From a virus (taxonomy: Duplodnaviria; Heunggongvirae; Uroviricota; Caudoviricetes): DNA of 64,000 nucleotides. The position numbers and the translations under genes were made by a program. Shown here in pieces: positions 121 to 60,243 of this stretch (position 1 is its first letter; each line of letters opens with the position of its first letter). The stretch is from positions 1-64,000 of the IMG/VR virus record IMGVR_UViG_3300037400_002787; one strand, given 5' to 3'. The notes under the pieces are model-generated. The model was not told the origin of the DNA. It saw only the letters and a list, made by a program, of their open reading frames with translations, and did not search any database.

Positions 121-150
121 TTTACATCTGACCGCAATTTATGATATAAT
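121..150 (+). promoter_or_regulatory. sigma70-type phage promoter (TTTACA-N17-TGATATAAT)
   Basis: TTTACAtctgacc at 121, extended -10 TGATATAAT at 142-150. Member of a 12-copy conserved promoter family in this window. Confidence 0.7.
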
Positions 151-176
151 ATCTCCACATCGACAAGGAGAGTAAA

Positions 177-497
177 ATGGCACAAGGTAGAAAACGGCTA
201 TGCAATCAAGACTGCAACAACTGCGATGCGATATTCAACGAGCAGTTGGCTGTGCTGCTCAATGTGCTAGCATTGAAGTTTGGGGACGAAGTGTGGCACA
301 TAACTAATCGTGTGTGTGCTAATATGACCTGCTGCCCGATATGCGGGATTGACGATTTCTGTCACGATGTCATATATGATTCTGGCGATGGGGGCATTCT
401 AGCAATCGACCGCATCAGGGAATCTGATTCGTGCGAAGTCGCAGAGATGGCGAAGGAGATTTTCAAAGAGTTCAACAAGAAAGGACAAGCAAAATGA
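177..497 (+). CDS. hypothetical Cys-rich protein (CxxC pairs, possible Zn-binding)
   Basis: ORF downstream of the promoter, SD aaggagagtaaaATG. Has CNQDCNNC and CCPICG motifs. Confidence 0.55.
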   Translation: MAQGRKRLCNQDCNNCDAIFNEQLAVLLNVLALKFGDEVWHITNRVCANMTCCPICGIDDFCHDVIYDSGDGGILAIDRIRESDSCEVAEMAKEIFKEFNKKGQAK

Positions 498-676
498 CCG
501 ATTCCACATCACAATTCTTAACTCTGAGCCCAACAACAAGCACATCGGATTCTGAAGATAAGTCACTCTATGCTCTGGCGGAAGCGAAACTCCGTGAAAA
601 AGTGCAGAATGGTGATCTTGAAGCCATTGCATTGGTACTAAAATTGCAACCAAATAAGTTAGAGGTAACTTGCTAA
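494..676 (+). CDS. hypothetical small protein
   Basis: ATGA overlap with the upstream stop. 60 aa, in operon context. Confidence 0.4.
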   Translation: MTDSTSQFLTLSPTTSTSDSEDKSLYALAEAKLREKVQNGDLEAIALVLKLQPNKLEVTC

Positions 677-696
677 GAAAATAAGGAGAAAAAACA

Positions 697-1926
697 ATGG
701 CACGGAAACTAGCAAGTGTAGTAGAGATTAGCGAAATACTCCCCATAGAGGGAGCGGACAAACTTGAACTTGCCAAGATGAAGGGCAAGGGATGGCAGGT
801 TGTTGTTCAGAAGGGGGAGTTTAATATTGGAGATTTAGCCGTATATGCGGAGATAGATAGTTTTCTCCCGTCTGATGATGACCGCTATGCATTTCTCCGC
901 GAGAGGTGTCTTCGTCGTTTCGTCTCCAAGTCTGGCAATGTCCTCCGTGAGGGCATCAAGATCAAGACCATCAAGTTGCGGGGGCAGATTTCGCAGGGGC
1001 TGCTGATGCCACTCGCCAAGTTCCCGGAGATAACATCGCGCATAATAGAAGGGAAATTCCTAACCTGCACAAAAGATGAATGGCAGAATGAGTTGGACAA
1101 AATCTGTGCGGAAAGCAACGAGCCGTTAGATGTTGTGCCATATGCAAAAGAAGACTACATAGTAGAACTCATCGGTGCGGATGTCACGAAACTCCTCAAG
1201 GTCGAACACTACGACGAGGTGAAGGAGCAGTTGCAGCCAGCGATGGGGAATCCCATCTGTGCTGATGCCCTTGGCAAGTTTCCTTCCGACTATATACCCA
1301 AGACTGACGAAGAGAGAATCCAGAACCTCGGGGACTGGTTCGAGAAGATGAAGGGGAGGGTATGGCAGGTGTCCTGCAAGCATGACGGCACTTCCTGCAC
1401 GATTGCATACTCGAAGATGATTGACGAGGGTAATCCCGAAATAGTGTGCTCTCGCAATCTTAGGCTAAAGCCCGAATCGGCGGATGGCAAGATTCCAGTA
1501 TACTGGCAGATGGCAAAGCAGTACGACATGCTCAATAAACTCAAGGGGCTTTCCGAGAGTATGGGAATAGAGTATGCTGTGCAGGGCGAGATAGTCGGAC
1601 CCGGCATCAACAAATGCAGAAATAAGGAGCAGACATACAAGTTCCTTGTGTTCCGAATCTACGACATCACAAACCAGAAGTTGGTGAATCCTACGGATAC
1701 TGTGCAGATGTGCAAGTCACTTGGTCTTGAGCATGTCCAGATTGTGAAGGACAACTTTGCTTTCTTCGACGAAATCAAGACGATGGACGAGGCATTGAAG
1801 TTCGCTGAGGGCAAGACCGCCGAGGGCAATGAGAGAGAGGGAGTAGTTTTGAAGACGATTGATACGCTTCCGTATGCAAGTTTCAAGATTGTAAGCAACA
1901 AGTACCTGATGAAGCAGGAGGACTGA
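697..1926 (+). CDS. ATP-dependent RNA ligase-like nucleotidyltransferase with N-terminal tRNA-binding (Trbp111/CsaA-like) OB domain
   Basis: N-terminus VVEISEILPIEGADKLELAKMKGKGWQVVVQKGEFNIGDLAVYAEIDSFLP matches the tRNA-binding OB-fold pattern. KxDG adenylation motif CKHDGTSCTIAY follows. SD aaggagaaaaaacaATG. Confidence 0.5.
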   Translation: MARKLASVVEISEILPIEGADKLELAKMKGKGWQVVVQKGEFNIGDLAVYAEIDSFLPSDDDRYAFLRERCLRRFVSKSGNVLREGIKIKTIKLRGQISQGLLMPLAKFPEITSRIIEGKFLTCTKDEWQNELDKICAESNEPLDVVPYAKEDYIVELIGADVTKLLKVEHYDEVKEQLQPAMGNPICADALGKFPSDYIPKTDEERIQNLGDWFEKMKGRVWQVSCKHDGTSCTIAYSKMIDEGNPEIVCSRNLRLKPESADGKIPVYWQMAKQYDMLNKLKGLSESMGIEYAVQGEIVGPGINKCRNKEQTYKFLVFRIYDITNQKLVNPTDTVQMCKSLGLEHVQIVKDNFAFFDEIKTMDEALKFAEGKTAEGNEREGVVLKTIDTLPYASFKIVSNKYLMKQED

Positions 1927-1928
1927 CC

Positions 1929-2278: not shown

Positions 2279-3052
2279 ATGAAAAGCAAAAAAACAAGCA
2301 ATGGACACCTCCTTCTCACGGAGAAGCAGACGGAGAAACTGGGAAAGATTCTGGCAAAGGCTCTTTCCAAATACGGCCTACGCCAGAAGGACTTTAAGAC
2401 CTTCGATGTCAAGCGGGGGATAGAGATTCTAGAAGAAATCGCCCGAATGCGCAAGGAACTCGAGTCCAAGCATAAAGCAGTTGCTCAGAAGTGCCGCAAG
2501 GACTTCGAGTATTGGAAGAAGTGGCATCTCAATCATGCGAAGAAGGGCAAGAAGGCATTGGGGGAGATGCTCAAGATTCTCTCCAAGTTCGACTCGTATC
2601 AGGTTCAGGGCTTGTGTGATTTCGTTAAGTCTCTCCGTCCCCGCGTGGACTACGGACATCTCTACAAAAGGATGAAAGCCGAGGGCAATGCGTCCTGGGG
2701 AAGCCCGAGCTACATCGTCACCAACGTCCTCAACGGCACAAAGCAGGAACTCGTCTCGAAAAATTCAAAGGCATACAAGGTGATGTCTGCGGCCGTCAAC
2801 AATGCGAAGAAGGCGGTTGCCGACCAAAAACCCGGCAACAGGCTTCTTGGACTGGACGGTGTGGTGAGCGTCAAGGATGGAGACCACTATATCGCATTTG
2901 TCACAGGGGGCAACAATGGTTGCAGCGATTGGGCTACATACTTCAAGAGTCTCATAACCATTGTGAACTCCGTGAAGAAGGGTTGGCTCATCGAAATTGA
3001 AAACGACTGTTGCGACGATGTACACTATGCCTTGATTGGGTTTCGGATTTAA
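2279..3052 (+). CDS. hypothetical protein, basic N-terminus (alternative start 2246)
   Basis: Long ORF between the two DUF2829 paralogs. SD aaaggaaaactATG at 2279. Confidence 0.5.
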   Translation: MKSKKTSNGHLLLTEKQTEKLGKILAKALSKYGLRQKDFKTFDVKRGIEILEEIARMRKELESKHKAVAQKCRKDFEYWKKWHLNHAKKGKKALGEMLKILSKFDSYQVQGLCDFVKSLRPRVDYGHLYKRMKAEGNASWGSPSYIVTNVLNGTKQELVSKNSKAYKVMSAAVNNAKKAVADQKPGNRLLGLDGVVSVKDGDHYIAFVTGGNNGCSDWATYFKSLITIVNSVKKGWLIEIENDCCDDVHYALIGFRI

Positions 3053-3069
3053 TAACAAAGGAGAAAATT

Positions 3070-5100: not shown

Positions 5101-5703
5101 ATGGCAACCATACCGGCATCGTTCTTTCAAACCGCCCATGTTCCCACGTACTGCGATTTTGCAAAGAAGGGAACGGTTGTAATATTCGACACGGAGACAA
5201 CGGGTTTCCACGATTCTGATGAGGTAGTGCAATTGGCGGTTGTTGCTGTGAAGGACGGGGAAGAGAAATTCGCTAAAGCCGTATATCTAAAGAATAGGAA
5301 TCCAATAGACGGCACGGAAGCACAGCAGGTCAATGGCATTACGGATGCGATTCTTGCAGAGAAGGGTCTGGAGCCGACTGTGGTATTAAACGATTTCCTC
5401 GCTCTCCTCAAATCAACAATAGAGGAAGAGGGTAGGGTTCTTCTAGTGGCGCATAATCTGGCTTTCGATTGGCGGATGTTGGCGAATATGCTAGAAAGAT
5501 ATGGATGCCAGAACATTCCAACGGGCGTTGTGCCTTGCTGCACTTTGGAATTCGTGAAGTCACTCTGCCTGCCAAAGACCATTCTACCGAGAAACAAACT
5601 TAGCACCTGCATAGAGGTCTTCGGACTTTCCGCACGAAATTCGCATGATGCTCTAGACGATGCAAGGGCTTGTCTTGAACTTTTTAGATTTCTAACCGCC
5701 TAA
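5101..5703 (+). CDS. DEDDh 3'-5' exonuclease (DnaQ/epsilon-like)
   Basis: Exo I VIFDTETTG, Exo II HNLAFDWRML, Exo III HDALDDARACLEL. Confidence 0.75.
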   Translation: MATIPASFFQTAHVPTYCDFAKKGTVVIFDTETTGFHDSDEVVQLAVVAVKDGEEKFAKAVYLKNRNPIDGTEAQQVNGITDAILAEKGLEPTVVLNDFLALLKSTIEEEGRVLLVAHNLAFDWRMLANMLERYGCQNIPTGVVPCCTLEFVKSLCLPKTILPRNKLSTCIEVFGLSARNSHDALDDARACLELFRFLTA

Positions 5704-5708
5704 CCCCC

Positions 5709-5738
5709 TTGCAAACTGACACCCGTTTATGATATAAT
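5709..5738 (+). promoter_or_regulatory. sigma70-type phage promoter
   Basis: ccccTTGCAAactgac, N18, TGATATAAT. Confidence 0.65.
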
Positions 5739-5798
5739 ATATTCGTCAAAAGGAGAATATCAAAGACAAAGACAACAATCCAAGAAAGAGAAGTACTT

Positions 5799-14229: not shown

Positions 14230-14510
14230 TGTCAGTGACCCAACCCTGAAGGGTTGGGCTTGCGGGTGAAAGAGACCGCGAGCCTGCGCTGACTAGGGGA
14301 CTAGAAAGGAAACGAAGAAACAGAAATGACAGTAGTAGTTCGAGAGGAATGCATAGGCACCCGTGGATGGTTGTCCAAGTCTGCGGCTCTGCGGTGTGCG
14401 GTTAAACAGCCCTGCGAGGTAGGGGCAGTGCCGCATACAAGAAACCCTCTGGAACGCCCCGATGGGCACCTAACCCGCCTTCGGGCGGTGACTTACCCCG
14501 CAAGGGGTCA
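14230..14510 (+). ncRNA. omega-RNA-like structured scaffold (orphan)
   Basis: Homologous to the 41664-41956 scaffold. Differences are largely paired substitutions in GC-rich stems. Confidence 0.55.
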
Positions 14511-14641
14511 TGCCGCGCGGGAGTGTACCCCCTCCCGCCGTGGCTCTTTTTCGGAACCGAAAACAAACAACAAAAGAGAAAGGAGGATGCGCAATTCCTC
14601 CCAACCCTAAAGGGATTGGGTTCCCTTGCGCATTTTCTATG
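14230..14641 (+). mobile_element. ORF-less IscB-type IS200/605 (HEARO/omega-RNA) element, copy A
   Basis: About 88% identical to the omega-RNA region upstream of iscB at 41664. LE hairpin cccaaccctgaagggttggg (14239-14258), RE hairpin gcgcaattcctcccaaccctaaagggattgggttcccttgcgc (14589-14631). The iscB ORF is replaced by about 80 nt. Ends in tttctATG. Confidence 0.7.
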
Positions 14642-15310
14642 GTAATGTTAAGAGAGAACCAGACAAATACCGTTAAAATCTGTGTAGATGCGTCCATAGA
14701 TGTAGCGGGCTTTTCTCTTGTGCTGGCTGCCTGTGGGGTCATTAGGACGATAGCCGACATCTCGGCGGCAACGCTAAGCGTATCCTATTCTGCGGAAGAG
14801 GTGGCGAGGATAAGCAGTTCCGTTACGTATGGGACCTTGATAGTTTATGATGCCGAGGGAGCGGAGTACATGGAGGTACTCCCACGTTTCCGAAGAACTG
14901 CGGCGGACTGCGTTGGCGAACAGACAATCTACCTGACAATAGCTAGCACGAAAGAAATAGATGGAGGATCGGGGGGTGACACCCCCTCTGGGGATTACGT
15001 TACGCCGCAGCAACTCAATCAGGCGATAAACAGAGCATCACAGGCCGCAAATAGATACACCGATGAAGCCGTTGAGGGCATAGAGACCACGATTATCCAG
15101 GAGCAGCCGGTGCATGTTGTGGATGGGGAGGGACAGCCGATAAGTATGACGGTGCAGGAAGCAGTGCAGCAGATTGTCAATAATAGCGAGGCCATTGAAG
15201 ATGCATCGGAGTCCCATCTGCATGGAAAGGTCAAGGATGAGGACGGCGACGGACAGCCGGACGACGAGACGCTCTATCTGAATTCCGGAAAAGATAGCAT
15301 AGTAATTTAA
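14639..15310 (+). CDS. hypothetical protein; start codon lies in the terminal nucleotides of element copy A
   Basis: ATG 14639 is in frame with ORF 14510-15310. The upstream part of that ORF lies in the non-coding element. Confidence 0.45.
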   Translation: MVMLRENQTNTVKICVDASIDVAGFSLVLAACGVIRTIADISAATLSVSYSAEEVARISSSVTYGTLIVYDAEGAEYMEVLPRFRRTAADCVGEQTIYLTIASTKEIDGGSGGDTPSGDYVTPQQLNQAINRASQAANRYTDEAVEGIETTIIQEQPVHVVDGEGQPISMTVQEAVQQIVNNSEAIEDASESHLHGKVKDEDGDGQPDDETLYLNSGKDSIVI

Positions 15311-16530: not shown

Positions 16531-16809
16531 TGTCAGCGACCCAACCCTGAAGGGTTGGGCTTGTGGGTGAAAGAGACCGCGAGCCCGCGCTGACTAGGGG
16601 ACTGAAACGAAAGGTAAAACTAAAGTGACAGTAGCAGTTACAGAGGAATGCATAGGCACCTGCGGATGTGAGTCCAAGTCCGCAGCACTGTGGTGTGCGG
16701 TTAAACAGCCCTGCGAGGCAGGGGCAGTGCCGCATGCAAGAAACCCTCTGCAACGCCCCGATGGGCACCTAACCCGCCTTCGGGCGGTGACTTACCCCGC
16801 AAGGGGTCA
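16531..16809 (+). ncRNA. omega-RNA-like structured scaffold (orphan)
   Basis: Homologous to 14230-14510 and 41664-41956. Confidence 0.55.
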
Positions 16810-16940
16810 TGCCACGCGGGAGTGTACCTCCTCCCGCCGTGGCTCTTTTACGAAACCGAGAACAAACAACAAAAGAGAAAGGAGGATGCGCAATTCCTCC
16901 CAACCCTAAAGGGATTGGGTTCCCTTGCGCATTTTCTATG
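16531..16940 (+). mobile_element. ORF-less IscB-type IS200/605 (HEARO/omega-RNA) element, copy B
   Basis: About 93% identical to copy A. Same LE/RE hairpins. Ends tttctATG at 16938-16940. Confidence 0.7.
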
Positions 16941-17156
16941 GCTATCAAGACTACTAAGCGTAAAGTGTCATCGAGGGATAATCCTAAAGTGATGAATTTT
17001 CTTAACATAAACGGAATGACGCTTTCTCTTGGCGACTTGAGGAAGTCTGATTTTTCGGCAGTAGAAGACCCGAAATGTAGTGTAAAGAGTCTTCAGACAT
17101 GGGCGATACAGTTGAATAACATACTCCGCGGTTTTTCGCAGGCGCAGGAGGATTGA
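16938..17156 (+). CDS. hypothetical protein; start codon at the terminus of element copy B
   Basis: ATG 16938 is in frame with ORF 16809-17156. Alternative start 17000. Confidence 0.4.
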   Translation: MAIKTTKRKVSSRDNPKVMNFLNINGMTLSLGDLRKSDFSAVEDPKCSVKSLQTWAIQLNNILRGFSQAQED

Positions 17157-20456: not shown

Positions 20457-20468
20457 GGAATGATACTT

Positions 20469-22330: not shown

Positions 22331-22338
22331 AAACCCCC

Positions 22339-22368
22339 TTGCAATAATCCACAATATTTTGATATAAT
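22339..22368 (+). promoter_or_regulatory. sigma70-type phage promoter
   Basis: cccccTTGCAAtaatcc, N, TGATATAAT. Confidence 0.65.
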
Positions 22369-27968: not shown

Positions 27969-28009
27969 AGCGACAAGAGAAGCGGCATTCTGACGGATGT
28001 CGCTTTTTT
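27969..28009 (+). terminator. probable terminator
   Basis: gcgaca...tgtcgc stem followed by tttttt. Confidence 0.45.
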
Positions 28010-28021
28010 CTTTCTGCCCCC

Positions 28022-28051
28022 TTGAAATCCGCAACCTAAATATGATATAAT
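28022..28051 (+). promoter_or_regulatory. sigma70-type phage promoter driving a leaderless mRNA
   Basis: ccccTTGAAAtccgc, N, TGATATAAT ends 28051. ATG at 28058, 6 nt downstream. Confidence 0.65.
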
Positions 28052-28057: not shown

Positions 28058-28720
28058 ATGAGCGAAGACAATAAAGAATACTGGAAGCCGTCAGTGACGG
28101 CAGACGTCGTGGTTGTAGACATTCACCAGGCGAAGTTCCGCAAAGACGGGGCATACATCAACATACTCCTCATCAAGAGGTCTGACAGGAGCGATGCATT
28201 CCCGAACTGCTGGGCTCTCCCCGGAGGATTCCTCGACAAGGGCGAATCCATAGATCAGTGTGCCGCAAGGGAACTCAAAGAGGAAACCGGCCTTGAAGCC
28301 GAGAACCTTATGCCTGTCGGCGTCTATTCCAATCCTAGCCGAGACCCAAGGGGGCAGGTAATTTCCCATGCTTTCATGTCGGTTTTCCCCTCTACCGACG
28401 AGAACCCCCTTCCCGTCAAGGCGGGAGACGATGCCAAGGATTTCGGGCTATTCAATCTAAAGGGTAAGTTCTCCCGTGAAGATGGAACCCTCAATGTTCG
28501 GCTTCGCTGTCCCGAGAACAATAAAGTCATTGAGTTCAAGGCAACCTTCTCACAGGGAGCCCTTGGCCTCCTACAGACTAAGATAGAATACAAGAGCGAC
28601 GACAAGTTGGCATTCGACCATGCGGAAATCATCGCAAGGGCGATTCTTCGGACACCTGACCTGGTAATGCCGACCTCAACAAAGCCGATGCAATCTGAAG
28701 AGAAGTCTAAAGAGAAATAA
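28058..28720 (+). CDS. NUDIX hydrolase
   Basis: Nudix box GGFLDKGESIDQCAARELKEETGL (Gx5Ex7REUxEExGU). Confidence 0.8.
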   Translation: MSEDNKEYWKPSVTADVVVVDIHQAKFRKDGAYINILLIKRSDRSDAFPNCWALPGGFLDKGESIDQCAARELKEETGLEAENLMPVGVYSNPSRDPRGQVISHAFMSVFPSTDENPLPVKAGDDAKDFGLFNLKGKFSREDGTLNVRLRCPENNKVIEFKATFSQGALGLLQTKIEYKSDDKLAFDHAEIIARAILRTPDLVMPTSTKPMQSEEKSKEK

Positions 28721-28736
28721 ACTTCTCTATACCCCC

Positions 28737-28766
28737 TTTACAACTGACCGCAAGATATGCTATAAT
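28737..28766 (+). promoter_or_regulatory. sigma70-type phage promoter
   Basis: cccccTTTACAactgaccg, N, TGCTATAAT. Confidence 0.65.
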
Positions 28767-34463: not shown

Positions 34464-34468
34464 CCCCC

Positions 34469-34498
34469 TTTACAACTGACCATAAGAAATGATATAAT
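34469..34498 (+). promoter_or_regulatory. sigma70-type phage promoter
   Basis: cccccTTTACAactgacca, N, TGATATAAT. Confidence 0.7.
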
Positions 34499-41392: not shown

Positions 41393-41683
41393 ATGAGATT
41401 AACAGAACTTACCCCCATATTCGTAGACCAAATCCCCGAAGAACTCGAGGATGGGAAAATATATGTCTGCCGTAAATACAAGACGGCAACACATCTCTGC
41501 GCCTGTGGATGTGGTAAAAAAGTTGTCACACCTTTCAAGGAAGGTTTTTGGACATTGACTACTAATGACATAGATAGCAAGGTGACGATGAGACCGTCTA
41601 TCGGGAACTTTGATATTCCGTGCAAGTCGCACTATTTCCTCACAGACAACAAGGTGGAATGGGTGTCAGTGGTCCGACCCTGA
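41393..41683 (+). CDS. hypothetical zinc-ribbon protein; 3' end and stop lie inside the IscB element left end
   Basis: CACGCGKK motif. Stop codon TGA falls within the LE hairpin ccgaccctgaagggttggg. Confidence 0.45.
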   Translation: MRLTELTPIFVDQIPEELEDGKIYVCRKYKTATHLCACGCGKKVVTPFKEGFWTLTTNDIDSKVTMRPSIGNFDIPCKSHYFLTDNKVEWVSVVRP

Positions 41684-41956
41684 AGGGTTGGGCTTGTAAG
41701 GGGAACCGAACAAGCCTGCGCTGACTAGGGGACTAGAAAGGAAACAGAGAAACAGAAATGATAGTAGCAGTTCAAGAGGAATGCATAGGCACCCGTGGAT
41801 GTTTGTCCAAGTCTGCGGCACTGCGGTGTGTGGTTAAACAAGCCTGCGAGGTAGGGCTAGTGCCACACACGATAAACCCTCTTGAACGCCCCGATGGGCA
41901 CCTAACCTCCCCGCAAGGGGAGTGACTTACCCTGAACAAGGGTCAAACCAAAAGCG
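41664..41956 (+). ncRNA. omega-RNA (HEARO-type) scaffold of IscB
   Basis: Non-coding GC-rich paired region directly upstream of iscB. Conserved in two orphan copies. Confidence 0.6.
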
Positions 41957-43222
41957 ATGACATACATAATAGACAGAGACGGGAAGCCATTGATGCCGAC
42001 GAAGCGCGGCAATATGGTTCGTCATCTGCTGAAGAGCGGTGTCGCCAAGGTGGTTCGTTACGAGCCATTCACGGTGATGATACTGCGCGATGTAGGTCAT
42101 TGCGTCCAAGCGGTGACGCTTGGTGTTGATGTGGGGAGCAGGCACATCGGGCTTTCCGCAACGACTGAAAAGAAGGAACTGTATTCCGCACAGGTGGAAC
42201 TAAGGGACGATGTGTCTAAACTTCTGACGGCTCGCAGGGAGTTTAGGAGGGCAAGGCGAGGACGCAAGCACAACTGGTATCGTCCAGCAAAATGGTCTAA
42301 CAGGGCGAATGAGGAGGGCAATGCCGCTCTTCCGCCGAGCATCAAGCACAAGGCTGAATCGCACATTCGGGCGATACGATTTATATGCAGGATGCTACCT
42401 ATTGGCAAGATAGTGGTGGAGATAGGGAAGTTTGATGTACAGAAATTGAAGAACCCCGAAATCCACAACGAGCAGTACCAACAGGGAACATTGGCAGGCT
42501 GGGAGAACCTGAAAGCCTACGCGAAGTATCGTGATGGCTACAAGTGTCGCGCATGTGGGAAGAGCAAACACAAGGATGGCGCGAGGCTTGAAGTCCACCA
42601 CATCATTCGCAAGGCAGATGGCGGTACGGATGTGCCAGAGAATGTAGTAACCTTGTGCGAGGATTGCCATGCGGCTCACCACAAGGGCGAAAGGAAGTTG
42701 AAGTTCCGCCAAGCGCCACAGCACAAGGCGGAAGCCCACATGAATGCGATGCGGAAGTATCTGATAGATGCTCTTTTCTGGTCTGGCAGGAGAATAGATG
42801 TGACCTACGGCTACAAGACGGCAATGGCACGGAGTGAGCATGGCATAGCGAAGTCTCATGCATCTGATGCATACTGCATAGCAGGGAACTTCAGTGCGGA
42901 GCGGAATGACTATAATATGTATCTTCACAAGTTCGTTCGCCGCCATAACCGTTGTCTACATAAGTTCACTATCTTAAAAGGTGGAATCCGCAAGGCGAAC
43001 CAAGCCCCAAAGTATGTGTTCGGTTTTCGGTTATTTGATTGCGCCCGATACAACGGGCAGGATTGCTTTGTGTTCGGGCGTCGGTCGAGCGGTTCTTTCG
43101 ACATACGGACGCTGGGGGGCAAGAAGATTTCGGCTGGGGTCTCGTACAAGAAGCTCAAGCCACTAACTAAGTCAACAACAATTCTAACAGAAAGGGGGAT
43201 GCGCGATTCCTCCCAACCCTGA
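41957..43222 (+). CDS. iscB: IscB (OMEGA RNA-guided HNH/RuvC nuclease)
   Basis: PLMP domain DGKPLMPT, RuvC-I LGVDVGSRHIGLS, Arg-rich bridge helix RREFRRARRGRKHNWYRPAKW. RuvC-II EIGKFD, HNH CRACGKS...HHIIRKADGGTDVPENVVTLCEDCHAAHH, RuvC-III SHASDAYCIAG. Confidence 0.85.
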   Translation: MTYIIDRDGKPLMPTKRGNMVRHLLKSGVAKVVRYEPFTVMILRDVGHCVQAVTLGVDVGSRHIGLSATTEKKELYSAQVELRDDVSKLLTARREFRRARRGRKHNWYRPAKWSNRANEEGNAALPPSIKHKAESHIRAIRFICRMLPIGKIVVEIGKFDVQKLKNPEIHNEQYQQGTLAGWENLKAYAKYRDGYKCRACGKSKHKDGARLEVHHIIRKADGGTDVPENVVTLCEDCHAAHHKGERKLKFRQAPQHKAEAHMNAMRKYLIDALFWSGRRIDVTYGYKTAMARSEHGIAKSHASDAYCIAGNFSAERNDYNMYLHKFVRRHNRCLHKFTILKGGIRKANQAPKYVFGFRLFDCARYNGQDCFVFGRRSSGSFDIRTLGGKKISAGVSYKKLKPLTKSTTILTERGMRDSSQP

Positions 43223-44565: not shown

Positions 44566-44572
44566 AGCCGAT

Positions 44573-44602
44573 TTGACAACTGCAAGCCATAAATGCTATA
44601 AT
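44573..44602 (+). promoter_or_regulatory. sigma70-type phage promoter
   Basis: TTGACAactgcaagcc, N, TGCTATAAT. Confidence 0.65.
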
Positions 44603-48183: not shown

Positions 48184-48993
48184 ATGGCTAATCAACAAGA
48201 AAAGATAACCGCCAAGGACATTCTGTCTCTCCTTCGCCAGAAGTACCTCGACTCCCGCGAGTGGGTAGTTGCCTCGGAAGTCCAGCGCACGACAGGGTGG
48301 AGCGACCGCCGATACGACTTTGTGGCGATGAACTGCTGGAACTCAAACTTCTACAAGATAGAGGTTGTTGAAATCAAGGTCAGCAAGTCCGACCTTCGCC
48401 ACGAACTAGAGGAAGCGGAGAAACACACTGTCATCTTCGACGAGATAGACTACTATTCCCTTGCCGCTCCCGCCGAGATAATCGACATGCGGATTATCCC
48501 GCCCAAGTGGGGAGTGTATGCTTATACGGATGGCAAACTGGTTACTAAACGGAAGCCCCTGCATCTCCACGATGAATTCAAGTCCACTGTGAGTCGCACC
48601 TTTGCGGCATCGTTTATGAGGGCGGCAATCGCCCAGAATATGGAGAAGACGCTTTTGTACGACGAAAAGCAGAAGGCGTTCGAGAAAGGGTTTAAGGAGG
48701 GCAGGGAGTCCTGCGGATTCGCCGCCAACGAGCGAGAAGAGTTTGAGCGGCTAAGGGACGAGAATCGTAGAGTTCAAGAAATTCTCTATTCTTTAGGTTT
48801 GTATTCAATTCTTGGGAAAAGCGAAGCAGCGAAGAGCAAGGTTGAATGGCTAAAGAAAGCGAAGAACATAGTGGAAACACTAGATGTCGGAAATCTTAAC
48901 TATTCTCTTAACAATATGAAGAGGGCTTTGGGGGAAATGGAGAACACGATGCAGGAGTTTAAGAAACTTCAGGATTCCGCTTCGGCCCCTTGA
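48184..48993 (+). CDS. MmcB-like PD-(D/E)XK nuclease-fold protein
   Basis: RRYDFVAMNCWNSNFYKIEVVEIKVSKSDL fits D...E.K with a flanking MmcB-like pattern. Confidence 0.4.
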   Translation: MANQQEKITAKDILSLLRQKYLDSREWVVASEVQRTTGWSDRRYDFVAMNCWNSNFYKIEVVEIKVSKSDLRHELEEAEKHTVIFDEIDYYSLAAPAEIIDMRIIPPKWGVYAYTDGKLVTKRKPLHLHDEFKSTVSRTFAASFMRAAIAQNMEKTLLYDEKQKAFEKGFKEGRESCGFAANEREEFERLRDENRRVQEILYSLGLYSILGKSEAAKSKVEWLKKAKNIVETLDVGNLNYSLNNMKRALGEMENTMQEFKKLQDSASAP

Positions 48994-49019
48994 AAACCGA
49001 AAGCTGAAAATGATATAAT
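48990..49019 (+). promoter_or_regulatory. sigma70-type phage promoter
   Basis: ccccTTGAAAaccgaaag, N, TGATATAAT. Confidence 0.65.
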
Positions 49020-49054: not shown

Positions 49055-49600
49055 ATGAGCAAGAAGGTAATAGTTGTAGTTGATGTACAGAATGATTTTG
49101 TGAAGGGTGGAGTGCTCCCTTACGGCTACCCACAGAAGGATATTGTTGGGGATGTCTGCGATTATGTCCGTAAGGCAAGCTCTGAGGGGCATCGCATTAT
49201 TGCCACACGTGATACTCATCACGACAACTATTTAGAGACATTGGAGGGCAAGAACCTTCCGGTCAAGCACTGCATTCACGATACTCACGGATGGTCACTT
49301 GTTCCCGACCTTAACGAAATGTATGCGGCGGGGAAGTTGACCGTGTTCGATAAGCCAACCTTTGGCACTCCTCTGGTTGGGGAGTATGTCCGTGGCATTA
49401 TAGAGAGTGAGACGATAGATGAGATTGAACTCATTGGATTCGACCTCTCTATCTGTGTGCTTGCAAATGCCGTGCTTCTTCGTTCAAGATTCCCAAATAT
49501 GCCCATCACCGTTCGTATGGACCTCTGTGGAGATGTTGACAAGAAGAGTTTCAAGGCAGCCTGCGAGGTGCTCCATAACCAGCAGATTCGGGTCTGCTAA
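49055..49600 (+). CDS. pncA: nicotinamidase (isochorismatase-family cysteine hydrolase)
   Basis: VVVDVQNDF (VDLQNDF), THHDNY (WHPANH metal site), VKHCIHDTHG (WPDHCVQ), FDK (catalytic Lys), IGFDLSICV (MGLATDYCV, catalytic Cys). Confidence 0.7.
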   Translation: MSKKVIVVVDVQNDFVKGGVLPYGYPQKDIVGDVCDYVRKASSEGHRIIATRDTHHDNYLETLEGKNLPVKHCIHDTHGWSLVPDLNEMYAAGKLTVFDKPTFGTPLVGEYVRGIIESETIDEIELIGFDLSICVLANAVLLRSRFPNMPITVRMDLCGDVDKKSFKAACEVLHNQQIRVC

Positions 49601-51084: not shown

Positions 51085-51094
51085 ATCACCCCCC

Positions 51095-51124
51095 TTTACA
51101 TCTGACCGCTATTTGTGATATAAT
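51095..51124 (+). promoter_or_regulatory. sigma70-type phage promoter
   Basis: cccccTTTACAtctgaccgc, N, TGATATAAT. Nearly identical to the promoter at 121. Confidence 0.7.
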
Positions 51125-51262
51125 ATACATCACGGCTTTAAGAAGGGATTTTACAATGCAATATACAATCGGGTATAAGAATAATAAAATAGAGATATGG
51201 TTAAGACAGGTGACACAAGATTGTAGTTGTGTACACTAACATACTTTGCGAGAAGCTAGAAA

Positions 51263-52216
51263 ATGTGCGGAGTAGCAAAGCCAGACCGTTCCGTAACCCT
51301 CTATGAGGGGCATATACGATGCATTATGGAACTAGACACACCTAGTGAGAAGTTAGCCGCCCTAGAGACAGTGTTTGCCATTGCATTTCCACCCGATGAA
51401 GATAGGGCATATGTTCCGCCGGAACTACCATCGGACGGAAGCAAATTGTCAAAGGAAGACAAAGCAAGGCGACTGGCTTACAATATTTTCAATGGGCTCA
51501 TAAGGTATCAAGGCAAGAAGGGAGATATACGGACTAAAGACAAGAGGAAGGTAGAAGCGGGACGACTTGGTGCTTATACGAGATGGGGGGATTCTAGTGC
51601 TTCAACGGTGGATGATTTTTCAAGGGAGAGGTTTCAGCAGACGAGAGATGATGCCGAGGTTTCCAATGAGGCCGAGATAGAGAAAAAGGAGATAATCAAG
51701 TTTGCTAAAGATTCTCCGCCCCAGGCTATAGCGGGAGATGACTTCAGCAGCGTATATGAGGCTGGAGCATATAAGTACAAGAAAGAACTTACCAAAGCAG
51801 AAGAGGAAGCCATAGCGGAATGGGATAGGAAGATTCCGAATGCACAGGCATTACATGGATTTATAGAGAAGAATTTTCTTTATGCAACAAGACCCACGGC
51901 TATCAAGCCTGATTTCTGCGAGTTTGCCTATAATAAACTTGCAAAGATTGACAGATGGATAAGTTCAAGAAGCAATAGACCTTTCAAGGACATAAGGGCG
52001 GCAATACACTATATAGCCCTAGATTACAAGAAGCAGTTGGGAGAAGCGGAAAGAGCCGAAAAGGAAGAGCGGCGAAAGAACATGGAAGCAGAGTTTCAGA
52101 TGAAGAACTCCGAACTCTCCCAGATGTCGGCAACCGACTTGGCAGACTTGGAACGCCGTAGAAGGAGACAGGCAGAGAAAGAGGCGGCGGCAAAGATAAT
52201 GAAGGGAGAATTGTAA
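51263..52216 (+). CDS. hypothetical protein upstream of helicase (possible replication initiation or helicase-loading factor; start uncertain)
   Basis: 317-aa ORF. Long AT-rich leader between promoter and gene. Confidence 0.45.
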   Translation: MCGVAKPDRSVTLYEGHIRCIMELDTPSEKLAALETVFAIAFPPDEDRAYVPPELPSDGSKLSKEDKARRLAYNIFNGLIRYQGKKGDIRTKDKRKVEAGRLGAYTRWGDSSASTVDDFSRERFQQTRDDAEVSNEAEIEKKEIIKFAKDSPPQAIAGDDFSSVYEAGAYKYKKELTKAEEEAIAEWDRKIPNAQALHGFIEKNFLYATRPTAIKPDFCEFAYNKLAKIDRWISSRSNRPFKDIRAAIHYIALDYKKQLGEAERAEKEERRKNMEAEFQMKNSELSQMSATDLADLERRRRRQAEKEAAAKIMKGEL

Positions 52217-52218
52217 CA

Positions 52219-54126
52219 GTGCGTCAGCCGAAGGAGATAGAGTTTGCATTTCTCGGTTGCATCTTCGATAATCCCCCTACGCGGATTCCAGATGCCCTCA
52301 AGGTCAAGGCAAACGTGGACTGGTTTTCCGACCAGTCGTGTAGACTTGTCTGGGCAGCCATAGACTCCGTTCGTCGCAAGACGGCCATAGAAAAGATTCG
52401 ACCTCTCGTGATAATCGACGAGGCAATACGGCTGTCCAACCGAAAAAAGTCGCCGTTCTACGGTTTCAAGATTTCAACGGATTTCATAGATGAGGCAAAG
52501 AAGTTCCGCGATGCCGCTGAAGACGACGAGACAACTACCATAGCGGCATATGCTCCGATTCTGCAGGAGGCGGCAATTGGCCGAAAGCTCAACGAGGCGA
52601 TGGAGTCCGCCAGTGTTGAGGGGAAGTATAGTTCCAACTCCGTGAGGATGATGGAACTAGCCAAGCAGATTCAGCAGATACAGAAGGACGAAAGCCCCGA
52701 GTCCGGTATAGATGTAGGCACCCTGCTTGACAATATGCAGGAATCCTATGACAAGGGATACGAGGAATATGCCGTCAACCACAACTATAGTTATGTTCCC
52801 GGCATTCCGTTTCCCTGGGATTGTATGTCCCATCTTACGGAGGGGCTCAATCCCGGTCTACATATTATAGCGGCAAGACCGTCCGTAGGCAAGACATCTT
52901 TTATCCTTCAATGCATGAACTACTGGTGTGAACTCGGTTACAAGGTGGCTTTTGATTGCCTTGACATGTCCGTGACCGAGATGATAAAGCGCCCAGTATC
53001 CAATCTGTCTTGGGTGTCTCCTAGAAGAATGAAGTTCGGATGGGCAACTCCTGACGAGCAGTTTAGGGTTAGAGAGGTTAGTAAGCAGGTAAGGGCATGG
53101 GGAGACAATGGATTGCTTACAGTGACCCTAGAGCCCGATGTAGATAAACTAAAGGCATGGGCAGAAATCCGTCATAGGGCGGGTAAACTCGATATTCTTG
53201 TCATAGACTTTGCACAGAGATTTCGTCTCAAGGGTACTTCTTCCGAGTATGAGATTGTGACTTATGCATCGGGGGTTTTGAAACAGTTGGCTAACGAATG
53301 CCTTATGCCGATTGTCTTGCTTTCGCAATTGTCAAGAGACAATGTAAAAGACCCCAACGGCAAGAGACCGCCGGAACTATCCGATTTGAGAGGTTCTGGA
53401 GCTTTGGAGCAAGATGCAACGTCGGTAGTGCTGCTTCACAAGGAAGCGGAAATAATAACACAGTGGCGTACAGACCCTCCTCTTTACTATGTAGAACAAT
53501 CTAACGACCCTAGGCTCAATAGCGAGAGAAGCGGCAGCATAGCGGCGGTGACTTGGAATCTTGCGAAGAACCAGAACGGAGCAACAGGGCAGTTGCCTTT
53601 CGTCGTGTTCCAGAACTGCTTTAGATGGTATGTCGGTGACGAGGACGGCGAGAAAGCGGCCAAGTTCCAGAAGATACAGGCAGATTGGAGATTCCTAGAG
53701 CAACCTTTCATTACTGCAGAACAAAACGGTGCGGTAGTCTATCCCGACTTCTGGACGAAGAAGTGTGCGGAGTTCTGCGGCAAACTCGGCTTGGAGATTC
53801 CATCTCACATAAGAGACCAGTTGGAAAAGTGGGATGTGGAGCGGTATAACAAGCTTTTAGCAGAGCACAATGCGAGAGTAAAACAGGCGAAGGAGGCAGT
53901 GGTGTCGCCAATGCAGGCAGAGGAAGCCCCTCCATCTATAGTCAAGATGACGGCAGAAGCCGTAGTCAAGGATGAAAGCAACAATGATGCCTCTGTTGGC
54001 ATTGCAATTCCCACCTCACAGGAGATTGATAAGCATTTCGACAATCATATTCCAAGCAACACAGAGTCGGATGCGGGAGTCGAACCAATGTCCGATGATA
54101 ATTTTTTCCCAGATGAGAAAATTTAA
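52219..54126 (+). CDS. dnaB: DnaB-like replicative DNA helicase
   Basis: Walker A IIAARPSVGKTSF, Walker B ILVIDFAQ, LLSQLSRD, SDLRGSGALEQDA. Confidence 0.75.
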   Translation: MRQPKEIEFAFLGCIFDNPPTRIPDALKVKANVDWFSDQSCRLVWAAIDSVRRKTAIEKIRPLVIIDEAIRLSNRKKSPFYGFKISTDFIDEAKKFRDAAEDDETTTIAAYAPILQEAAIGRKLNEAMESASVEGKYSSNSVRMMELAKQIQQIQKDESPESGIDVGTLLDNMQESYDKGYEEYAVNHNYSYVPGIPFPWDCMSHLTEGLNPGLHIIAARPSVGKTSFILQCMNYWCELGYKVAFDCLDMSVTEMIKRPVSNLSWVSPRRMKFGWATPDEQFRVREVSKQVRAWGDNGLLTVTLEPDVDKLKAWAEIRHRAGKLDILVIDFAQRFRLKGTSSEYEIVTYASGVLKQLANECLMPIVLLSQLSRDNVKDPNGKRPPELSDLRGSGALEQDATSVVLLHKEAEIITQWRTDPPLYYVEQSNDPRLNSERSGSIAAVTWNLAKNQNGATGQLPFVVFQNCFRWYVGDEDGEKAAKFQKIQADWRFLEQPFITAEQNGAVVYPDFWTKKCAEFCGKLGLEIPSHIRDQLEKWDVERYNKLLAEHNARVKQAKEAVVSPMQAEEAPPSIVKMTAEAVVKDESNNDASVGIAIPTSQEIDKHFDNHIPSNTESDAGVEPMSDDNFFPDEKI

Positions 54127-54149: not shown

Positions 54150-54533
54150 ATGAGTCAGAAATACGAGATGGAAGGTACTGTGACGGAGGTTTTCCCTACA
54201 CAGACCATAGGAAGCAAGGGATTCCAGAAGCGGGAATTCCGTATTAAGGAGAAGTCTGATAGCCAGTGGCCAAACTTTGTTCCTTTTTATTTGACTAAGG
54301 ACAAGTGTTCGCTTGCCGACTCCTTGACAGAGGGGGCGGAGGTGAAAGTTCACTTCAATCTTTCCGGGAGAATCTGGGACAAGGGTGATGGAAGTCCTAC
54401 TAGGTGCTTCTGCGAGAACCAGGCTTGGAAGATAGACATCTTGAAGAAGGGGAAGCCCAATGTCCCAGCCCCGGCAGAGCCGGAAGACGACCTTGAAGTG
54501 GCCGATGTAGGCGATGAAGATATTCCATTTTAA
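54150..54533 (+). CDS. ssb: single-stranded DNA-binding protein-like OB-fold protein with acidic DIPF tail
   Basis: C-terminal DDLEVADVGDEDIPF mirrors the SSB tail DDDIPF. N-terminal OB-like region. Confidence 0.55.
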   Translation: MSQKYEMEGTVTEVFPTQTIGSKGFQKREFRIKEKSDSQWPNFVPFYLTKDKCSLADSLTEGAEVKVHFNLSGRIWDKGDGSPTRCFCENQAWKIDILKKGKPNVPAPAEPEDDLEVADVGDEDIPF

Positions 54534-58315: not shown

Positions 58316-58344
58316 AGCCCCCTTCCGTAAGGAGGGGGGTTTTG
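58316..58344 (+). terminator. probable terminator
   Basis: cccccttcc / ggaggggggg hairpin, then tttt. Confidence 0.45.
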
Positions 58345-58356
58345 CATTATACCCCC

Positions 58357-58386
58357 TTTACAACTAACGGCAATATATGATATACT
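58357..58386 (+). promoter_or_regulatory. sigma70-type phage promoter driving a leaderless mRNA
   Basis: cccccTTTACAactaacgg, N, TGATATACT ends 58386. In-frame ATG at 58394. Confidence 0.6.
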
Positions 58387-58393: not shown

Positions 58394-59593
58394 ATGAAAA
58401 ACAACACCAAGAAATTCCGTATTTCAGTATATACTATAGCCAAGAACGAAGAGAAGGTTGCCGAAAGATGGTTCAACTGCTTCAAGGAAGCCGATGAAGT
58501 ATGTGTTCTTGTAAACAACTCCACGGACAAGACTGCGGAAATACTTAGGTCGCTTGGGGCTAAGGTAGTAGAGAAGAACTACGAGCATTTTAGATTCGAC
58601 ATAGCAAGAAACGATGCTATGAAGATATGTTCTCCTAAATCTACTTTGCTTTTCTGCTGTGATATGGATGACACCGTGGAGTCTGGGTGGCGGGAAAAGG
58701 TTGAACGAGCTTGGGAGTTGGGTGTCCAGACGGGAAGAAACCCAAATTCGATTATCTTCACCTACTCCGTAGAGTACAACACTTTCAACAAGGTGGCGAA
58801 CCATAGCCGCAAGCAGAAACAAAGTTTCGCCCGCCATAGCATACACACTCCTAATGGATGGTACTGGAAAAGTAGAATTCACGAATATCTAGAACACAGA
58901 GAGCGGAAGGTCTTTGTCTATTACCCGAAGTTTGAAGTGGTGAGTAGACCGACAAAATGTGAGCATGGCTCGTATCTTCCACTTCTTATAGAGGAGTGCC
59001 AAGACCCTAACTGCGAGGCGAGAAACATACATCTTCTTGGTAGAGAGTATATGCTTAACGGCAAGTACGACGAGGCGGTTGACTGGTTTAACAAGTATCT
59101 TTCGCACGTTGGGGCTACATGGGATTCCGAACGGGCAGCAAGTATGAAATTCCTCTCTGACTGCTATAGGGTTCTTGGATTCCCAAATGCACAGGAACTT
59201 TGGCTTTGGAAAGCAATGTCAGAGAACCCGAGAGATAGGGATGCACCATTTGCCCTTGGACAGTTGCTGATGAACAAGAAGGAGTACAAGACGGCAATTC
59301 GAGTTCTAGAGAAATGTCTCTCAATAGAGAAGCCAGAGTTCGACTATCCCTTCTTCTCTCTTTCCGCATGGACGGAGATGCCAATAGTATGTCTTGGCGA
59401 GTCCAGATACTATGTAGGCGACTGGGATGGAGCCATACGAGAACTTGACAAAGCCCTGTCTATGAACCCCAAAAACGAAACGGCAAGGAAGATGCGGGAC
59501 GAGATAGCCTCTATAATTGCGAAGGGAGGGAGACCCAATCTTCCGCCGCCTGAGATACCTAGAGAGAGGATAGAGATTCCAGAACTAATGTAG
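58394..59593 (+). CDS. family 2 glycosyltransferase with C-terminal TPR repeats
   Basis: ISVYTIAKNEEKVAERWFNCFKEADEVCVLVNNSTDKTAEIL (GT-A fold N-terminus), DxD-like CDMDD. TPR-like C-terminal half. Confidence 0.65.
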   Translation: MKNNTKKFRISVYTIAKNEEKVAERWFNCFKEADEVCVLVNNSTDKTAEILRSLGAKVVEKNYEHFRFDIARNDAMKICSPKSTLLFCCDMDDTVESGWREKVERAWELGVQTGRNPNSIIFTYSVEYNTFNKVANHSRKQKQSFARHSIHTPNGWYWKSRIHEYLEHRERKVFVYYPKFEVVSRPTKCEHGSYLPLLIEECQDPNCEARNIHLLGREYMLNGKYDEAVDWFNKYLSHVGATWDSERAASMKFLSDCYRVLGFPNAQELWLWKAMSENPRDRDAPFALGQLLMNKKEYKTAIRVLEKCLSIEKPEFDYPFFSLSAWTEMPIVCLGESRYYVGDWDGAIRELDKALSMNPKNETARKMRDEIASIIAKGGRPNLPPPEIPRERIEIPELM

Positions 59594-59609
59594 ACAAGTC
59601 TGCACCTGC

Positions 59610-59639
59610 TTGACAGTTATAACCGAATTGTGCTATAAT
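59610..59639 (+). promoter_or_regulatory. sigma70-type phage promoter driving a leaderless mRNA
   Basis: TTGACA, N18, TGCTATAAT ends 59639. ATG at 59646. Confidence 0.6.
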
Positions 59640-59645
59640 ATCTCT

Positions 59646-60194
59646 ATGCTTTACACAATAAAAGATGTCAAAGACCGTATCGACGAACTAGACTCCGAAG
59701 AATATGTTTCGGTTTCCATCGACGGGATACCAAGGGGTATTGCGATAGTTTCCGATTTGAAGGAGCAGCTTTATGGATATGGCGACCGTGCAAACAAGCG
59801 ACGGATAAAGCAGATGTTTCTTTCTGGCGTAACCTTCGATGTAAAGAGGGGAATTAACCTATACCCCGTTCCAAAAGAGGATTTCTGGCGAGAATTAGGT
59901 GGTGAGAACCTAGGGGAATTGAAAAACACTCCTATTATAGACATTGCGGATAAGCGGCCGTGCGACATATTCGGCAGGTCGCACGATGGTATGGTGTGTA
60001 TAGATTCCAATAACCAAGAATCCGAGGCCGAGACGGAGCCATTAGTCAAATGGGATGCAGACAAGGAAGTAATCCATTTTAGAGATGATGGAGATGTGGC
60101 CAAGAATAAATCACCGAACAAGAAGCCTCTCAAACAGGGTTTATTCGAAAAATTCAAGGGGTGGCTCAAGGGAGACAAGGGGTACAAGAGATAA
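59646..60194 (+). CDS. hypothetical protein
   Basis: In-frame ATG 6 nt after the -10 element. Confidence 0.45.
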   Translation: MLYTIKDVKDRIDELDSEEYVSVSIDGIPRGIAIVSDLKEQLYGYGDRANKRRIKQMFLSGVTFDVKRGINLYPVPKEDFWRELGGENLGELKNTPIIDIADKRPCDIFGRSHDGMVCIDSNNQESEAETEPLVKWDADKEVIHFRDDGDVAKNKSPNKKPLKQGLFEKFKGWLKGDKGYKR

Positions 60195-60213
60195 AGATTT
60201 TTGAAATTCCACC

Positions 60214-60243
60214 TTGAAATCGACGGCACGAATATGATATAAT
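60214..60243 (+). promoter_or_regulatory. sigma70-type phage promoter
   Basis: TTGAAAtcgacggc, N, TGATATAAT. Confidence 0.65.

Follow-up and report, generated by a model that had tools for sequence, protein, structure and literature searches.

Strong promoters repeated through the early regions of large phages are already well known, and promoters that match in all the sigma-70 elements are strong in the known systems. Among Gram-positive bacteria, a class of extended -10 promoters with a '-16 region' (TRTG) was reportedly described by Voskuil and Chambliss in 1998. The early 'uber' promoters of phage T4 combine the UP element, the -35 hexamer, TGn and the -10 hexamer in an extended consensus (Hinton 2010, PMC2988021); in the T4 middle promoters, a MotA box centred at -30 replaces the -35 hexamer and is joined to a host-type -10 that is often extended by TGn (PMC2988021). 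T4-like phages also carry PeSL, short terminator/promoter composites between small genes in plastic regions (PMC2839356, PMC4122927). Leaderless transcripts are known for the middle and late genes of the Thermus phage phiYS40 (PMC3594737), and '-10 adjacent to ORF' genes for Deinococcus-Thermus (PMC12340547). The present analysis concerns a family of twelve promoter copies in a stretch of 64,000 nucleotides (nt) of DNA from a virus of the Caudoviricetes (positions 1 to 64,000 of the IMG/VR record IMGVR_UViG_3300037400_002787; hereafter, the window), which is part of a genome of at least 96.6 kb. These copies are probably early or middle promoters that would be read by RNA polymerase with the primary sigma factor, with extra determinants, and that include leaderless units.

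By analogy, the closest functional counterpart of this family is the T4 early promoter class. In both, a single very strong promoter of host type appears to be repeated many times within the prereplicative region of a large lytic phage, with the -35 (GTTTAC in T4, TTTACA in 5 of the 12 copies here), TGn and -10 all near consensus and with further conserved positions beyond these canonical elements. A more speculative parallel is that T4 injects the ADP-ribosyltransferase Alt and that the window encodes an ADP-ribosyltransferase domain in a polyvalent protein (61542-63509). The differences are substantial: the T4 UP element is A/T-rich (PMC2988021), whereas the family in the window has a C5 tract at -41 to -37, of the opposite composition, as well as a fixed spacer of 18 base pairs (bp) that in one sub-class is almost fully specified. 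It has no sequence relationship to T4. The T4 middle promoters are similar in joining a phage-specific box in the -35 region to a host-type -10, but in the window a TTGACA-like hexamer is retained in all copies, the extra bases flank this hexamer, and no MotA or AsiA homologue was detected among the open reading frames (ORFs) of this partial genome with Pfam and PHROGs. The '-16 region' class is matched by TRTG before the -10 in 8 of the 12 copies, by TG in all of them and by the strong AAGGAG Shine-Dalgarno (SD) sequence of many genes, but neither the C5 tract nor the spacer block is characteristic of that class. New, then, are a promoter signature that is precisely defined, is shared throughout a clade of uncultured ruminant-gut phages of 130-275 kb and can be used to annotate their transcription units, two conserved elements without a known reader (the C5 tract at the place of the UP element and the specified spacer), and orthologous genes that flip between SD-led and leaderless configurations, a natural experiment on the origin of leaderless genes.

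Anatomy of the twelve promoter copies

The 12 sites share the arrangement CCCCC-TTKMMA-(18 bp)-TGnTATAAT-AT, and all are intergenic and located on the + strand. The -10 is TATAAT in 11 copies and TATACT in the copy that ends at 58386, TGn directly precedes it in every copy, and A and then T follow it in most. The TTKMMA hexamer, with 4-6 of 6 matches to TTGACA, lies exactly 18 bp 5' of the -10 in all 12 copies. The C-run is a perfect C5 in eight copies and reads GCCCC, CCACC, CCTGC or CCGAT in the remainder. Two sub-classes stand out: class I, CCCCC-TTTACA-(A/T)CTGAC(C/G)GC(A/T)A (sub-class pattern CCCCCTTTACA(A/T)CTGAC(C/G)GC(A/T)A), comprises the copies that end at 150, 28766, 34498, 51124 and 58386, and class II is CCCCC-TTG(A/C)AA, mostly followed by nCC. 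Every copy lies between ORFs of the + strand, oriented to the next gene and 6-63 nt from its start; in two copies the first base directly follows a stop codon, and a third copy shares sequence with the final codons of the gene before it. The copies and the features adjoining them are as follows.

75..99, + strand: intrinsic-terminator-like hairpin with a T-run, directly 5' of copy 1
116..150, + strand: copy 1, class I, CCCCC TTTACA TCTGACCGCAATTTATGA TATAAT; 26 nt to ATG 177, SD AAGGAG
5101-5703, + strand: RNase_T-like ORF, with its stop TAA directly 5' of copy 2
5704..5738, + strand: copy 2, CCCCC TTGCAA ACTGACACCC; begins directly after that TAA; 60 nt to ATG 5799
22334..22368, + strand: copy 3, class II, CCCCC TTGCAA; 40 nt to ATG 22409
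27981..28004, + strand: terminator-like hairpin with T6, 5' of copy 4
28017..28051, + strand: copy 4, class II, CCCCC TTGAAA; 6 nt (ttccat), then ATG 28058 (NUDIX); predicted leaderless
28732..28766, + strand: copy 5, class I, CCCCC TTTACA ACTGACCGCAAGATATGC TATAAT, spacer block named CTGACCGC; 32 nt to ATG 28799, SD AAGGAG
34464..34498, + strand: copy 6, class I; directly after the TAG of ORF 33888-34463; 37 nt to ATG 34536 (NAPRTase)
44568..44602, + strand: copy 7, CCGAT TTGACA (perfect -35, weakest C-run); 34 nt to ATG 44637
48985..49019, + strand: copy 8, class II, GCCCC TTGAAA; overlaps the 3' codons of ORF 48184-48993; 35 nt to ATG 49055 (isochorismatase/nicotinamidase-like)
51090..51124, + strand: copy 9, class I; 31 nt to ATG 51156 of a 27-codon ORF (51156-51239), which is followed by ORF 51263-52216 and then DnaB (52219-54126)
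58318..58338, + strand: terminator-like hairpin CCCCCTTCC...GGAGGGGG with a T-run, 5' of copy 10
58352..58386, + strand: copy 10, class I, -10 TATACT; 7 nt, then ATG 58394 (glycosyltransferase-TPR); predicted leaderless
59605..59639, + strand: copy 11, CCTGC TTGACA; 6 nt, then ATG 59646; predicted leaderless
60209..60243, + strand: copy 12, class II, CCACC TTGAAA; 63 nt A-rich leader without SD to ATG 60307 (DNA polymerase III beta clamp; start set by orthology with the related locus L160)

The motif is strongly over-represented as a whole. CCCCCTTKMMA occurs 8 times in the window vs 0.39 expected, TGNTATAAT 14 times vs 1.6 and TGnTATAAT on the + strand 13 times vs 1.1; CCCCC alone shows no general enrichment on this strand (33 vs 28). 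In a generic promoter scan, only these sites on the + strand have both a TG and 10 or more of the 12 hexamer positions matched. Relatives of the window are available for comparison: homologues of its NAPRTase (63-95% identical) and glycosyltransferase are found on metagenome contigs of 130-275 kb, of ruminant gut origin by their sample names, that are syntenic with the window and show ~65-80% nucleotide identity within genes, and the short contig L162 matches the window over 11.9 kb with 100% identity. To avoid circularity, a weight matrix was built from 27 sites of related phages only, with no window site included. With this matrix, the 12 sites rank as the top 12 in the window (20.6-44.7 bits), compared with 8.5 for the next score on the + strand, 7.7 for the best on the - strand and 19.4 for the best of 100 shuffles. 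As the matrix recovers these 12 sites and no others, the number of copies in the window is exactly 12, and the + strand carries them all; inspection of the other intergenic gaps by eye revealed no further class of promoter.

The similarity among the copies is confined to the promoter itself. The pairwise identity is 0.78 in the C-run plus -35, 0.94 in the extended -10 and 0.45 in the spacer, and falls to the random level of 0.28-0.29 in the 58-nt flanks on either side, the boundaries being sharp at -42 and about -4. The motif is thus a sharply bounded element of ~40 nt and not a duplicated segment, given that the flanks are at the random level. The preliminary description had listed at least 12 promoters at precisely these places, and each of the 12 end coordinates that it gave indeed closes a TATAAT (TATACT at 58386) preceded by TGn and, 18 bp upstream, by TTKMMA; the identification of the sites as promoters is well supported by the sequence anatomy and by the comparison with related phages. 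Its leaders of 25-45 nt with strong SD hold for seven of the nine leadered copies, in which the distance from the -10 to the ATG is 26-40 nt and an AGGAG-type SD is present, and fail for the copy ending at 5738, with 60 nt to ATG 5799, and for the one ending at 60243, with 63 nt and no SD; at 51124, the leader is followed by a first ORF of just 27 codons.

Two local features near individual copies can be recorded here. Behind copy 2, a strong SD-like AAAGGAG (5750-5756) is located 12 nt past the -10, and no canonical start is suitably spaced from it, the first ATG being that at 5799. A perfect 11-bp inverted repeat, TGACCGCAAGA / TCTTGCGGTCA (28745-28755 / 28768-28778), brackets the -10 of copy 5; as a general operator it is ruled out, since neither the other copies nor the orthologous promoters of the related loci L019 and L021 have it.

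The C-run and the spacer block, and what might read them

The extra conserved bases are shared with phages that have diverged considerably from the one represented by the window. From the window and six related loci, 33 sites of the + strand were selected by a -35-like hexamer and an extended -10 only, without the use of the C-run. In these sites, C is present at each of the positions -41 to -37 in 26-30 of the 33, C at -29 in 29, T at -17 in 26 and A at -6 in 27, with zero information 5' of -42 and 3' of -4. Additional sites with this motif are present in L159, L160 and L161, a phage of 274 kb. Upstream of two orthologous genes, NAPRTase and the one that follows NUDIX, positions -41 to -7 are conserved while the flanks are unalignable, and the spacer ACTGACCGCAAGATA is identical at non-orthologous sites, namely, the copy ending at 28766 in the window and position 9968 of L019. 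The proteins encoded next to these promoters in the relatives that share the consensus are about 65-80% identical; because the same consensus persists across such diverged genomes, the extra bases are held by functional selection rather than by recent copying. This sequence comparison shows that purifying selection acts throughout the phage clade on two elements, the C5 tract (-41 to -37) and, in class I, the spacer block. Unlike a dimeric operator, the latter is asymmetric. Of the motif as worded initially, which joined the C-run to an ACTGACC, the C-run stands, but only two copies contain a literal ACTGACC, of which the window as a whole shows no enrichment (7 vs 5.8 expected); CTGACC is found in five copies, and the element is really the class I spacer block.

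Other origins for these bases were considered and set aside. CTGACC is ruled out as a second -35, being only 11 bp from the -10. The C-run is ruled out both as the end of a terminator that lies upstream and as a piece of the preceding gene: it follows stop codons, and in only one relative (L019) does it serve as a hairpin arm. The latter site (L019 ~3027-3062) is a terminator that overlaps a promoter, with the hairpin GCCCCCTT-gaaaccct-AAGGGGGC followed by TTTT; the 5' arm consists of the C-run and the start of the -35, and the T-run runs into TGATATAAT.

Beyond the clade, the extended motif is at the level of chance. The scanned pattern consisted of C5, TTKMMA, N16 and TGNTATAAT, of which the window contains 8 exact matches in 64 kb. 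In GTDB (one genome per species; 185,579 bacterial and archaeal species, 596 Gb), there are 42 matches vs ~35 expected by chance, an estimate for 596 Gb, two strands, and 16 fixed and 3 two-fold positions; no genome has more than two matches, all the loci are unrelated to the phage, and no host is indicated. A scan of IMG/VR gave 5 single matches, none at loci related to the window, and that of the JGI metagenomes 94 single matches, unrelated to the window except for a weak similarity of one gene in L115; an identical 18-mer in L001-L003, a single site in one unrelated phage, was set aside as uninformative. Given the chance level in bacterial genomes, compared with 8 matches in 64 kb, the extended motif is a signature of the phage clade and not a general feature of host promoters. 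The view, already taken in the preliminary description, that the conservation implies recognition by more than sigma-70 is strengthened by these results, with the C-run and spacer kept across diverged phages; the phage factor that it offered as an example is still a suggestion.

The favoured scheme is that the 12 copies would split a co-directional region of metabolic, replication and counter-defence genes into separate transcription units. A sigma-70-family (primary sigma) holoenzyme would read TTKMMA, the fixed 18-bp spacer, the TRTG/TGn extended -10, TATAAT and the A/T start of the discriminator. The genes behind the copies encode NUDIX, NAPRTase, a nicotinamidase-like protein, DnaB, the beta clamp and a glycosyltransferase; judging from these genes and by analogy with T4, T5 and SPO1, the copies would act in the prereplicative (early or delayed-early) phase. 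An extra reader might touch the C5 tract and the class I spacer block; this could be sigma region 4 or the alpha C-terminal domain of the host holoenzyme, through a flank contact, or, alternatively, a phage-encoded or injected regulator that would tune or time the promoters. Several observations speak against this scheme. To our knowledge, a C-rich tract at the place of the UP element is no known enhancer of sigma-70 promoters. The spacer is 18 bp in all 12 copies and not the usual optimum of 17 bp. Hints from the gene pool favour a Bacteroidota host, and the sigma consensus of that phylum, TTTG/TAnnTTTG, is absent at the 12 sites. Finally, families of sigma factors, anti-sigma factors and transcription regulators (including AsiA/MotA-like ones) were not detected among the ~90 ORFs of the window by Pfam/PHROGs, the genome being incomplete, and there is a single weak, unplaced match to HTH_38.

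These points bear on the most serious rival, under which the promoters are read only with a phage-supplied specificity factor, either sigma-like or an appropriator or activator that acts on the C5-TTKMMA box and the spacer block; the host would then belong to Bacteroidota such as Prevotella, and the family would be a phage-specific (middle-type or orthogonal) promoter class. In Bacteroidota, the primary sigma does not use TTGACA/TATAAT, its consensus being a -33 TTTG and a -7 box TAnnTTTG, and the ribosomes ignore SD; hence, if the host is a member of this phylum, its primary sigma would be unable to read the promoters, and a factor from the phage would be required. The conservation of the C-run and the spacer block exceeds the sigma-70 contacts and is asymmetric, like the box of an activator or sigma factor, and the chance-level occurrence of the pattern in bacterial genomes fits as well. 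With respect to the host, a DUF3127 single-strand-binding-like ORF (54150-54533) has cultured-phage matches in Bacteroidota only (all 62 with a named host genus, of 63), the window encodes a crAss001_48-like domain, and the 274-kb relative L161 was deposited within an NCBI 'Prevotella sp.' metagenome-assembled genome, in which the binning is uncertain. Animal-gut NAD-jumbo phages with a pncB-nadD-nadE cluster have Bacteroidota hosts predicted from CRISPR spacers (PMC11662467), although it is not established that they belong to the same clade. However, the -35, TGn and -10 match the consensus of a primary sigma almost perfectly, and no other box has taken the place of the -35 hexamer. Furthermore, SD is present at 45 of 78 starts in the window (58%, 36 of them strong) vs backgrounds of 22% and 8.5%. 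The Bacteroidota -7 box TANNTTTG, the lack of enrichment of which had been counted in favour of the phage factor, occurs 28 times vs 33 expected in the window (10 vs 12.4 on the + strand) and never at the 12 sites; TAnnTTTG is enriched in Bacteroides phage B40-8 (42 vs 19.6 expected), and two cultured Bacteroidota phages (L163 and L164) show the reverse pattern on the same measures, with SD at the background level. The combined use of SD and a sigma-70-type consensus argues, as far as the sequence goes, for a host that uses both. A strict dependence on a phage-supplied specificity factor thus seems unlikely. The combination of a Bacteroidota host with such a requirement is to be placed at that level or somewhat lower, and the fullest version, in which the clade infects Bacteroidota (e.g. 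rumen Prevotella), a phage factor reads the C-run and the spacer block and the expression code is orthogonal to that of the host, is decidedly improbable. If true, it would mean that a phage imports a foreign promoter and translation-initiation code; unless this Bacteroidota-host reading proves true, the family does not represent a new category.

Two other rivals concern the nature of the repeat itself. The conservation could stem mainly from copying, the element being a mobile or recombining promoter(-terminator) cassette like PeSL and a crossover point for gene shuffling. Terminator hairpins precede three copies (75-99, 27981-28004 and 58318-58338), forming a composite of terminator and promoter, the C-run of L019 is the 5' arm of the terminator hairpin described above, and the homology of the window with L009 at the nucleotide level breaks off at precisely 5703, the point at which copy 2 starts, and is restored at 34534, shortly past copy 6, so that two homology breakpoints abut copies of the motif; the ~29 kb of the window between these points correspond to ~6 kb in L009, and other breakpoints lie away from the motifs. 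PeSL cassettes are a partial analogue: nine of the 12 copies differ in lacking an adjacent stem-loop, and the consensus extends across distant genomes instead of being limited to a single one. Copying without selection would be expected to cause the consensus to drift from genome to genome, but the same consensus, spacer included, is found in all of these diverged phages, and the sharp boundaries of similarity, with random flanks, fit a copied cassette poorly. This explanation is therefore very unlikely, and any role in recombination would be an addition to, not a substitute for, the function of a promoter. That the motif is no promoter but a recurring site for protein binding or structure, for example in partition, packaging or replication, is barely credible: it is a strictly repeated, strand-specific 35-nt element, as such a site would be, but at each position by which a primary-sigma promoter is defined it matches or nearly matches the consensus, all copies are intergenic and face the next gene at leader distances of 6-63 nt, and the element precedes orthologous genes in relatives.

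Predicted leaderless genes

In three units, the -10 is followed almost immediately by the start codon, with no SD, because the -10 occupies the space where one would lie. The genes are as follows.

28058..28720, + strand: NUDIX gene, ATG 6 nt past the -10 of copy 4
58394..59593, + strand: glycosyltransferase(-TPR) gene, ATG 7 nt past the -10 of copy 10
59646..60194, + strand: gene for a protein of 182 amino acids, ATG 6 nt past the -10 of copy 11

The A of the ATG is the 7th or 8th base past the -10, that is, in the usual start region of primary-sigma promoters, so that in these units the mRNA would begin with AUG and would be translated without SD. The start codons are authentic, as shown by sequence comparison: the N-termini of the orthologues align at or downstream of the three ATGs, alternative starts are absent and public gene calls agree. 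For NUDIX, the N-terminus in the window, MSEDNKEYWKPSVT, aligns with MSETKDYWKPSVT in L019 and MGKTEYWKPSVT in L021, where the ATG is 6 and 7 nt past TGnTATAAT, respectively; the orthologues in L016 and L017 have a leader of ~30 nt with an SD-like sequence. Orthologues of the glycosyltransferase start with MFISVY, and since the window reads KFRISVY, with no Met, ATG 58394 is the sole canonical option; the public gene call P0121 (399 amino acids) has the same start. In L159, the ATG of this gene is 7 nt past the TGGTACAAT -10 of a promoter without the C-run, and in L160 the gene lies 73 nt 3' of a class I promoter. M1 of the third protein aligns with M1 of its orthologue in L160 (MLYTIKDV / MIYTVGDL; BLASTP E 2e-24), and the same start is called in the public locus L162. 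A gene for 74 amino acids in L009/L010 also starts 7 nt past a -10. As a separate observation, a 20-codon ORF in L160 (9927-10000), located 5' of the glycosyltransferase, starts 7 nt past the -10 of a promoter of this family, in leaderless geometry.

The alternative is that the three genes are not leaderless, being expressed by read-through, from a transcription start upstream of the ATG or from another translation start. A terminator is found upstream of only two of the three promoters (28051 and 58386), read-through transcripts with internal ORFs are likely, and the orthologues in L016, L017 and L160 are in leadered, SD-bearing or promoter-less contexts. However, the ATGs are conserved N-termini with no other canonical start, SD is absent, with the -10 in its place, and an ATG at the 7th or 8th nt recurs in four other phages (L019, L021, L159 and L009/L010), in orthologous and non-orthologous genes, far above the ~5% expected for an ATG at those positions. 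The geometry is thus both recurrent and evolutionarily labile, which favours real leaderless expression and leaves little room for the alternative, which appears rather improbable. We infer from the sequence that the transcripts of the three genes have their 5' ends at the AUG, as the preliminary description had proposed for the same three copies; read-through transcripts from upstream units probably also exist. The arrangement resembles that in phiYS40 and Deinococcus-Thermus, with an (extended) -10 a few nt 5' of the ATG, no SD and a mixture of leadered and leaderless units. It differs in that the leaderless promoters of the window have retained a complete -35 and form one family with the leadered promoters, with 3 of the 12 copies being leaderless, in that orthologous genes switch between the two states among relatives, and in that the phage is not one of a thermophile.

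Gene content of the window and further observations

Nearly all genes of the window are on the + strand, and its character is phage-like. The predicted functions include RNA ligase, SPFH/flotillin, NAPRTase, NAD synthase, DnaB, the ADP-ribosyltransferase domain of the polyvalent protein, NUDIX, an isochorismatase-like protein, DNA polymerase III beta clamp, dUTPase, RusA, a Tad2-like domain, dCMP deaminase, SAM synthetase, a collar/head-completion-like protein and PTH2; no tRNAs were found in the window. At the DNA level, megablast of 25 kb of the window against INPHARED phages gave no match, tblastn of DnaB, the beta clamp, the collar-like protein and an ORF of 370 amino acids gave distant or no matches with no host signal, and an exact look-up of the NAPRTase returned zero records.

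A complete-looking Preiss-Handler route to NAD+ is encoded, consisting of NAPRTase, a nucleotidyltransferase-like protein, NAD synthase and a nicotinamidase-like protein (the set is located at 1929-2225, 28058-28720, 34536-35771, 39529-41016 and 49055-49600, together with one unplaced CTP_transf_like ORF). It is accompanied by NUDIX and the Tad2-like (anti-Thoeris) domain, and several of these genes lie directly behind promoter copies. Together, the route, NUDIX and the Tad2-like domain look like a counter-defence and NAD-reconstitution set. The protein of 655 amino acids at 61542-63509 (+ strand) contains an ART-PolyVal ADP-ribosyltransferase domain, its relatives being larger polyvalent proteins (972 amino acids in L161); it may be an injected effector, and a role on RNA polymerase like that of T4 Alt, suggested by analogy, is pure speculation.

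Rfam identifies three full-length HEARO (IscB omega-RNA) matches of 113-118 bits on the + strand (14231-14474, 16532-16773 and 41665-41906), the third directly 5' of an RRXRR+HNH IscB ORF (41957-43222) and the first two preceding shorter ORFs (14510-15310 and 16809-17156), which may be decayed or represent different cargo. IscB homologues (65-87% identity) are numerous on contigs of 100-276 kb from the phage clade, one of which has two; a search of these homologues for a named bacterial copy gave only unnamed metagenome proteins from the same clade. Two TnpB-like ORFs (OrfB_IS605 with a Cas12f-like TNB domain; 31811-33130 and 35826-37115, + strand) flank the NAPRTase gene, and a weak promoter-like site, TGATACAAT, that ends at 35854 overlaps the start of the second. 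In L021 (3310-5505), the SAM synthetase gene is split by an intein (Intein_splicing and LAGLIDADG by Pfam), whereas the copy in the window (29297-30400) is intact. The region 20001-22000 of the window, in which the ORFs are C/P-rich, has the sole negative GC skew (-0.18) amid a uniformly positive profile.

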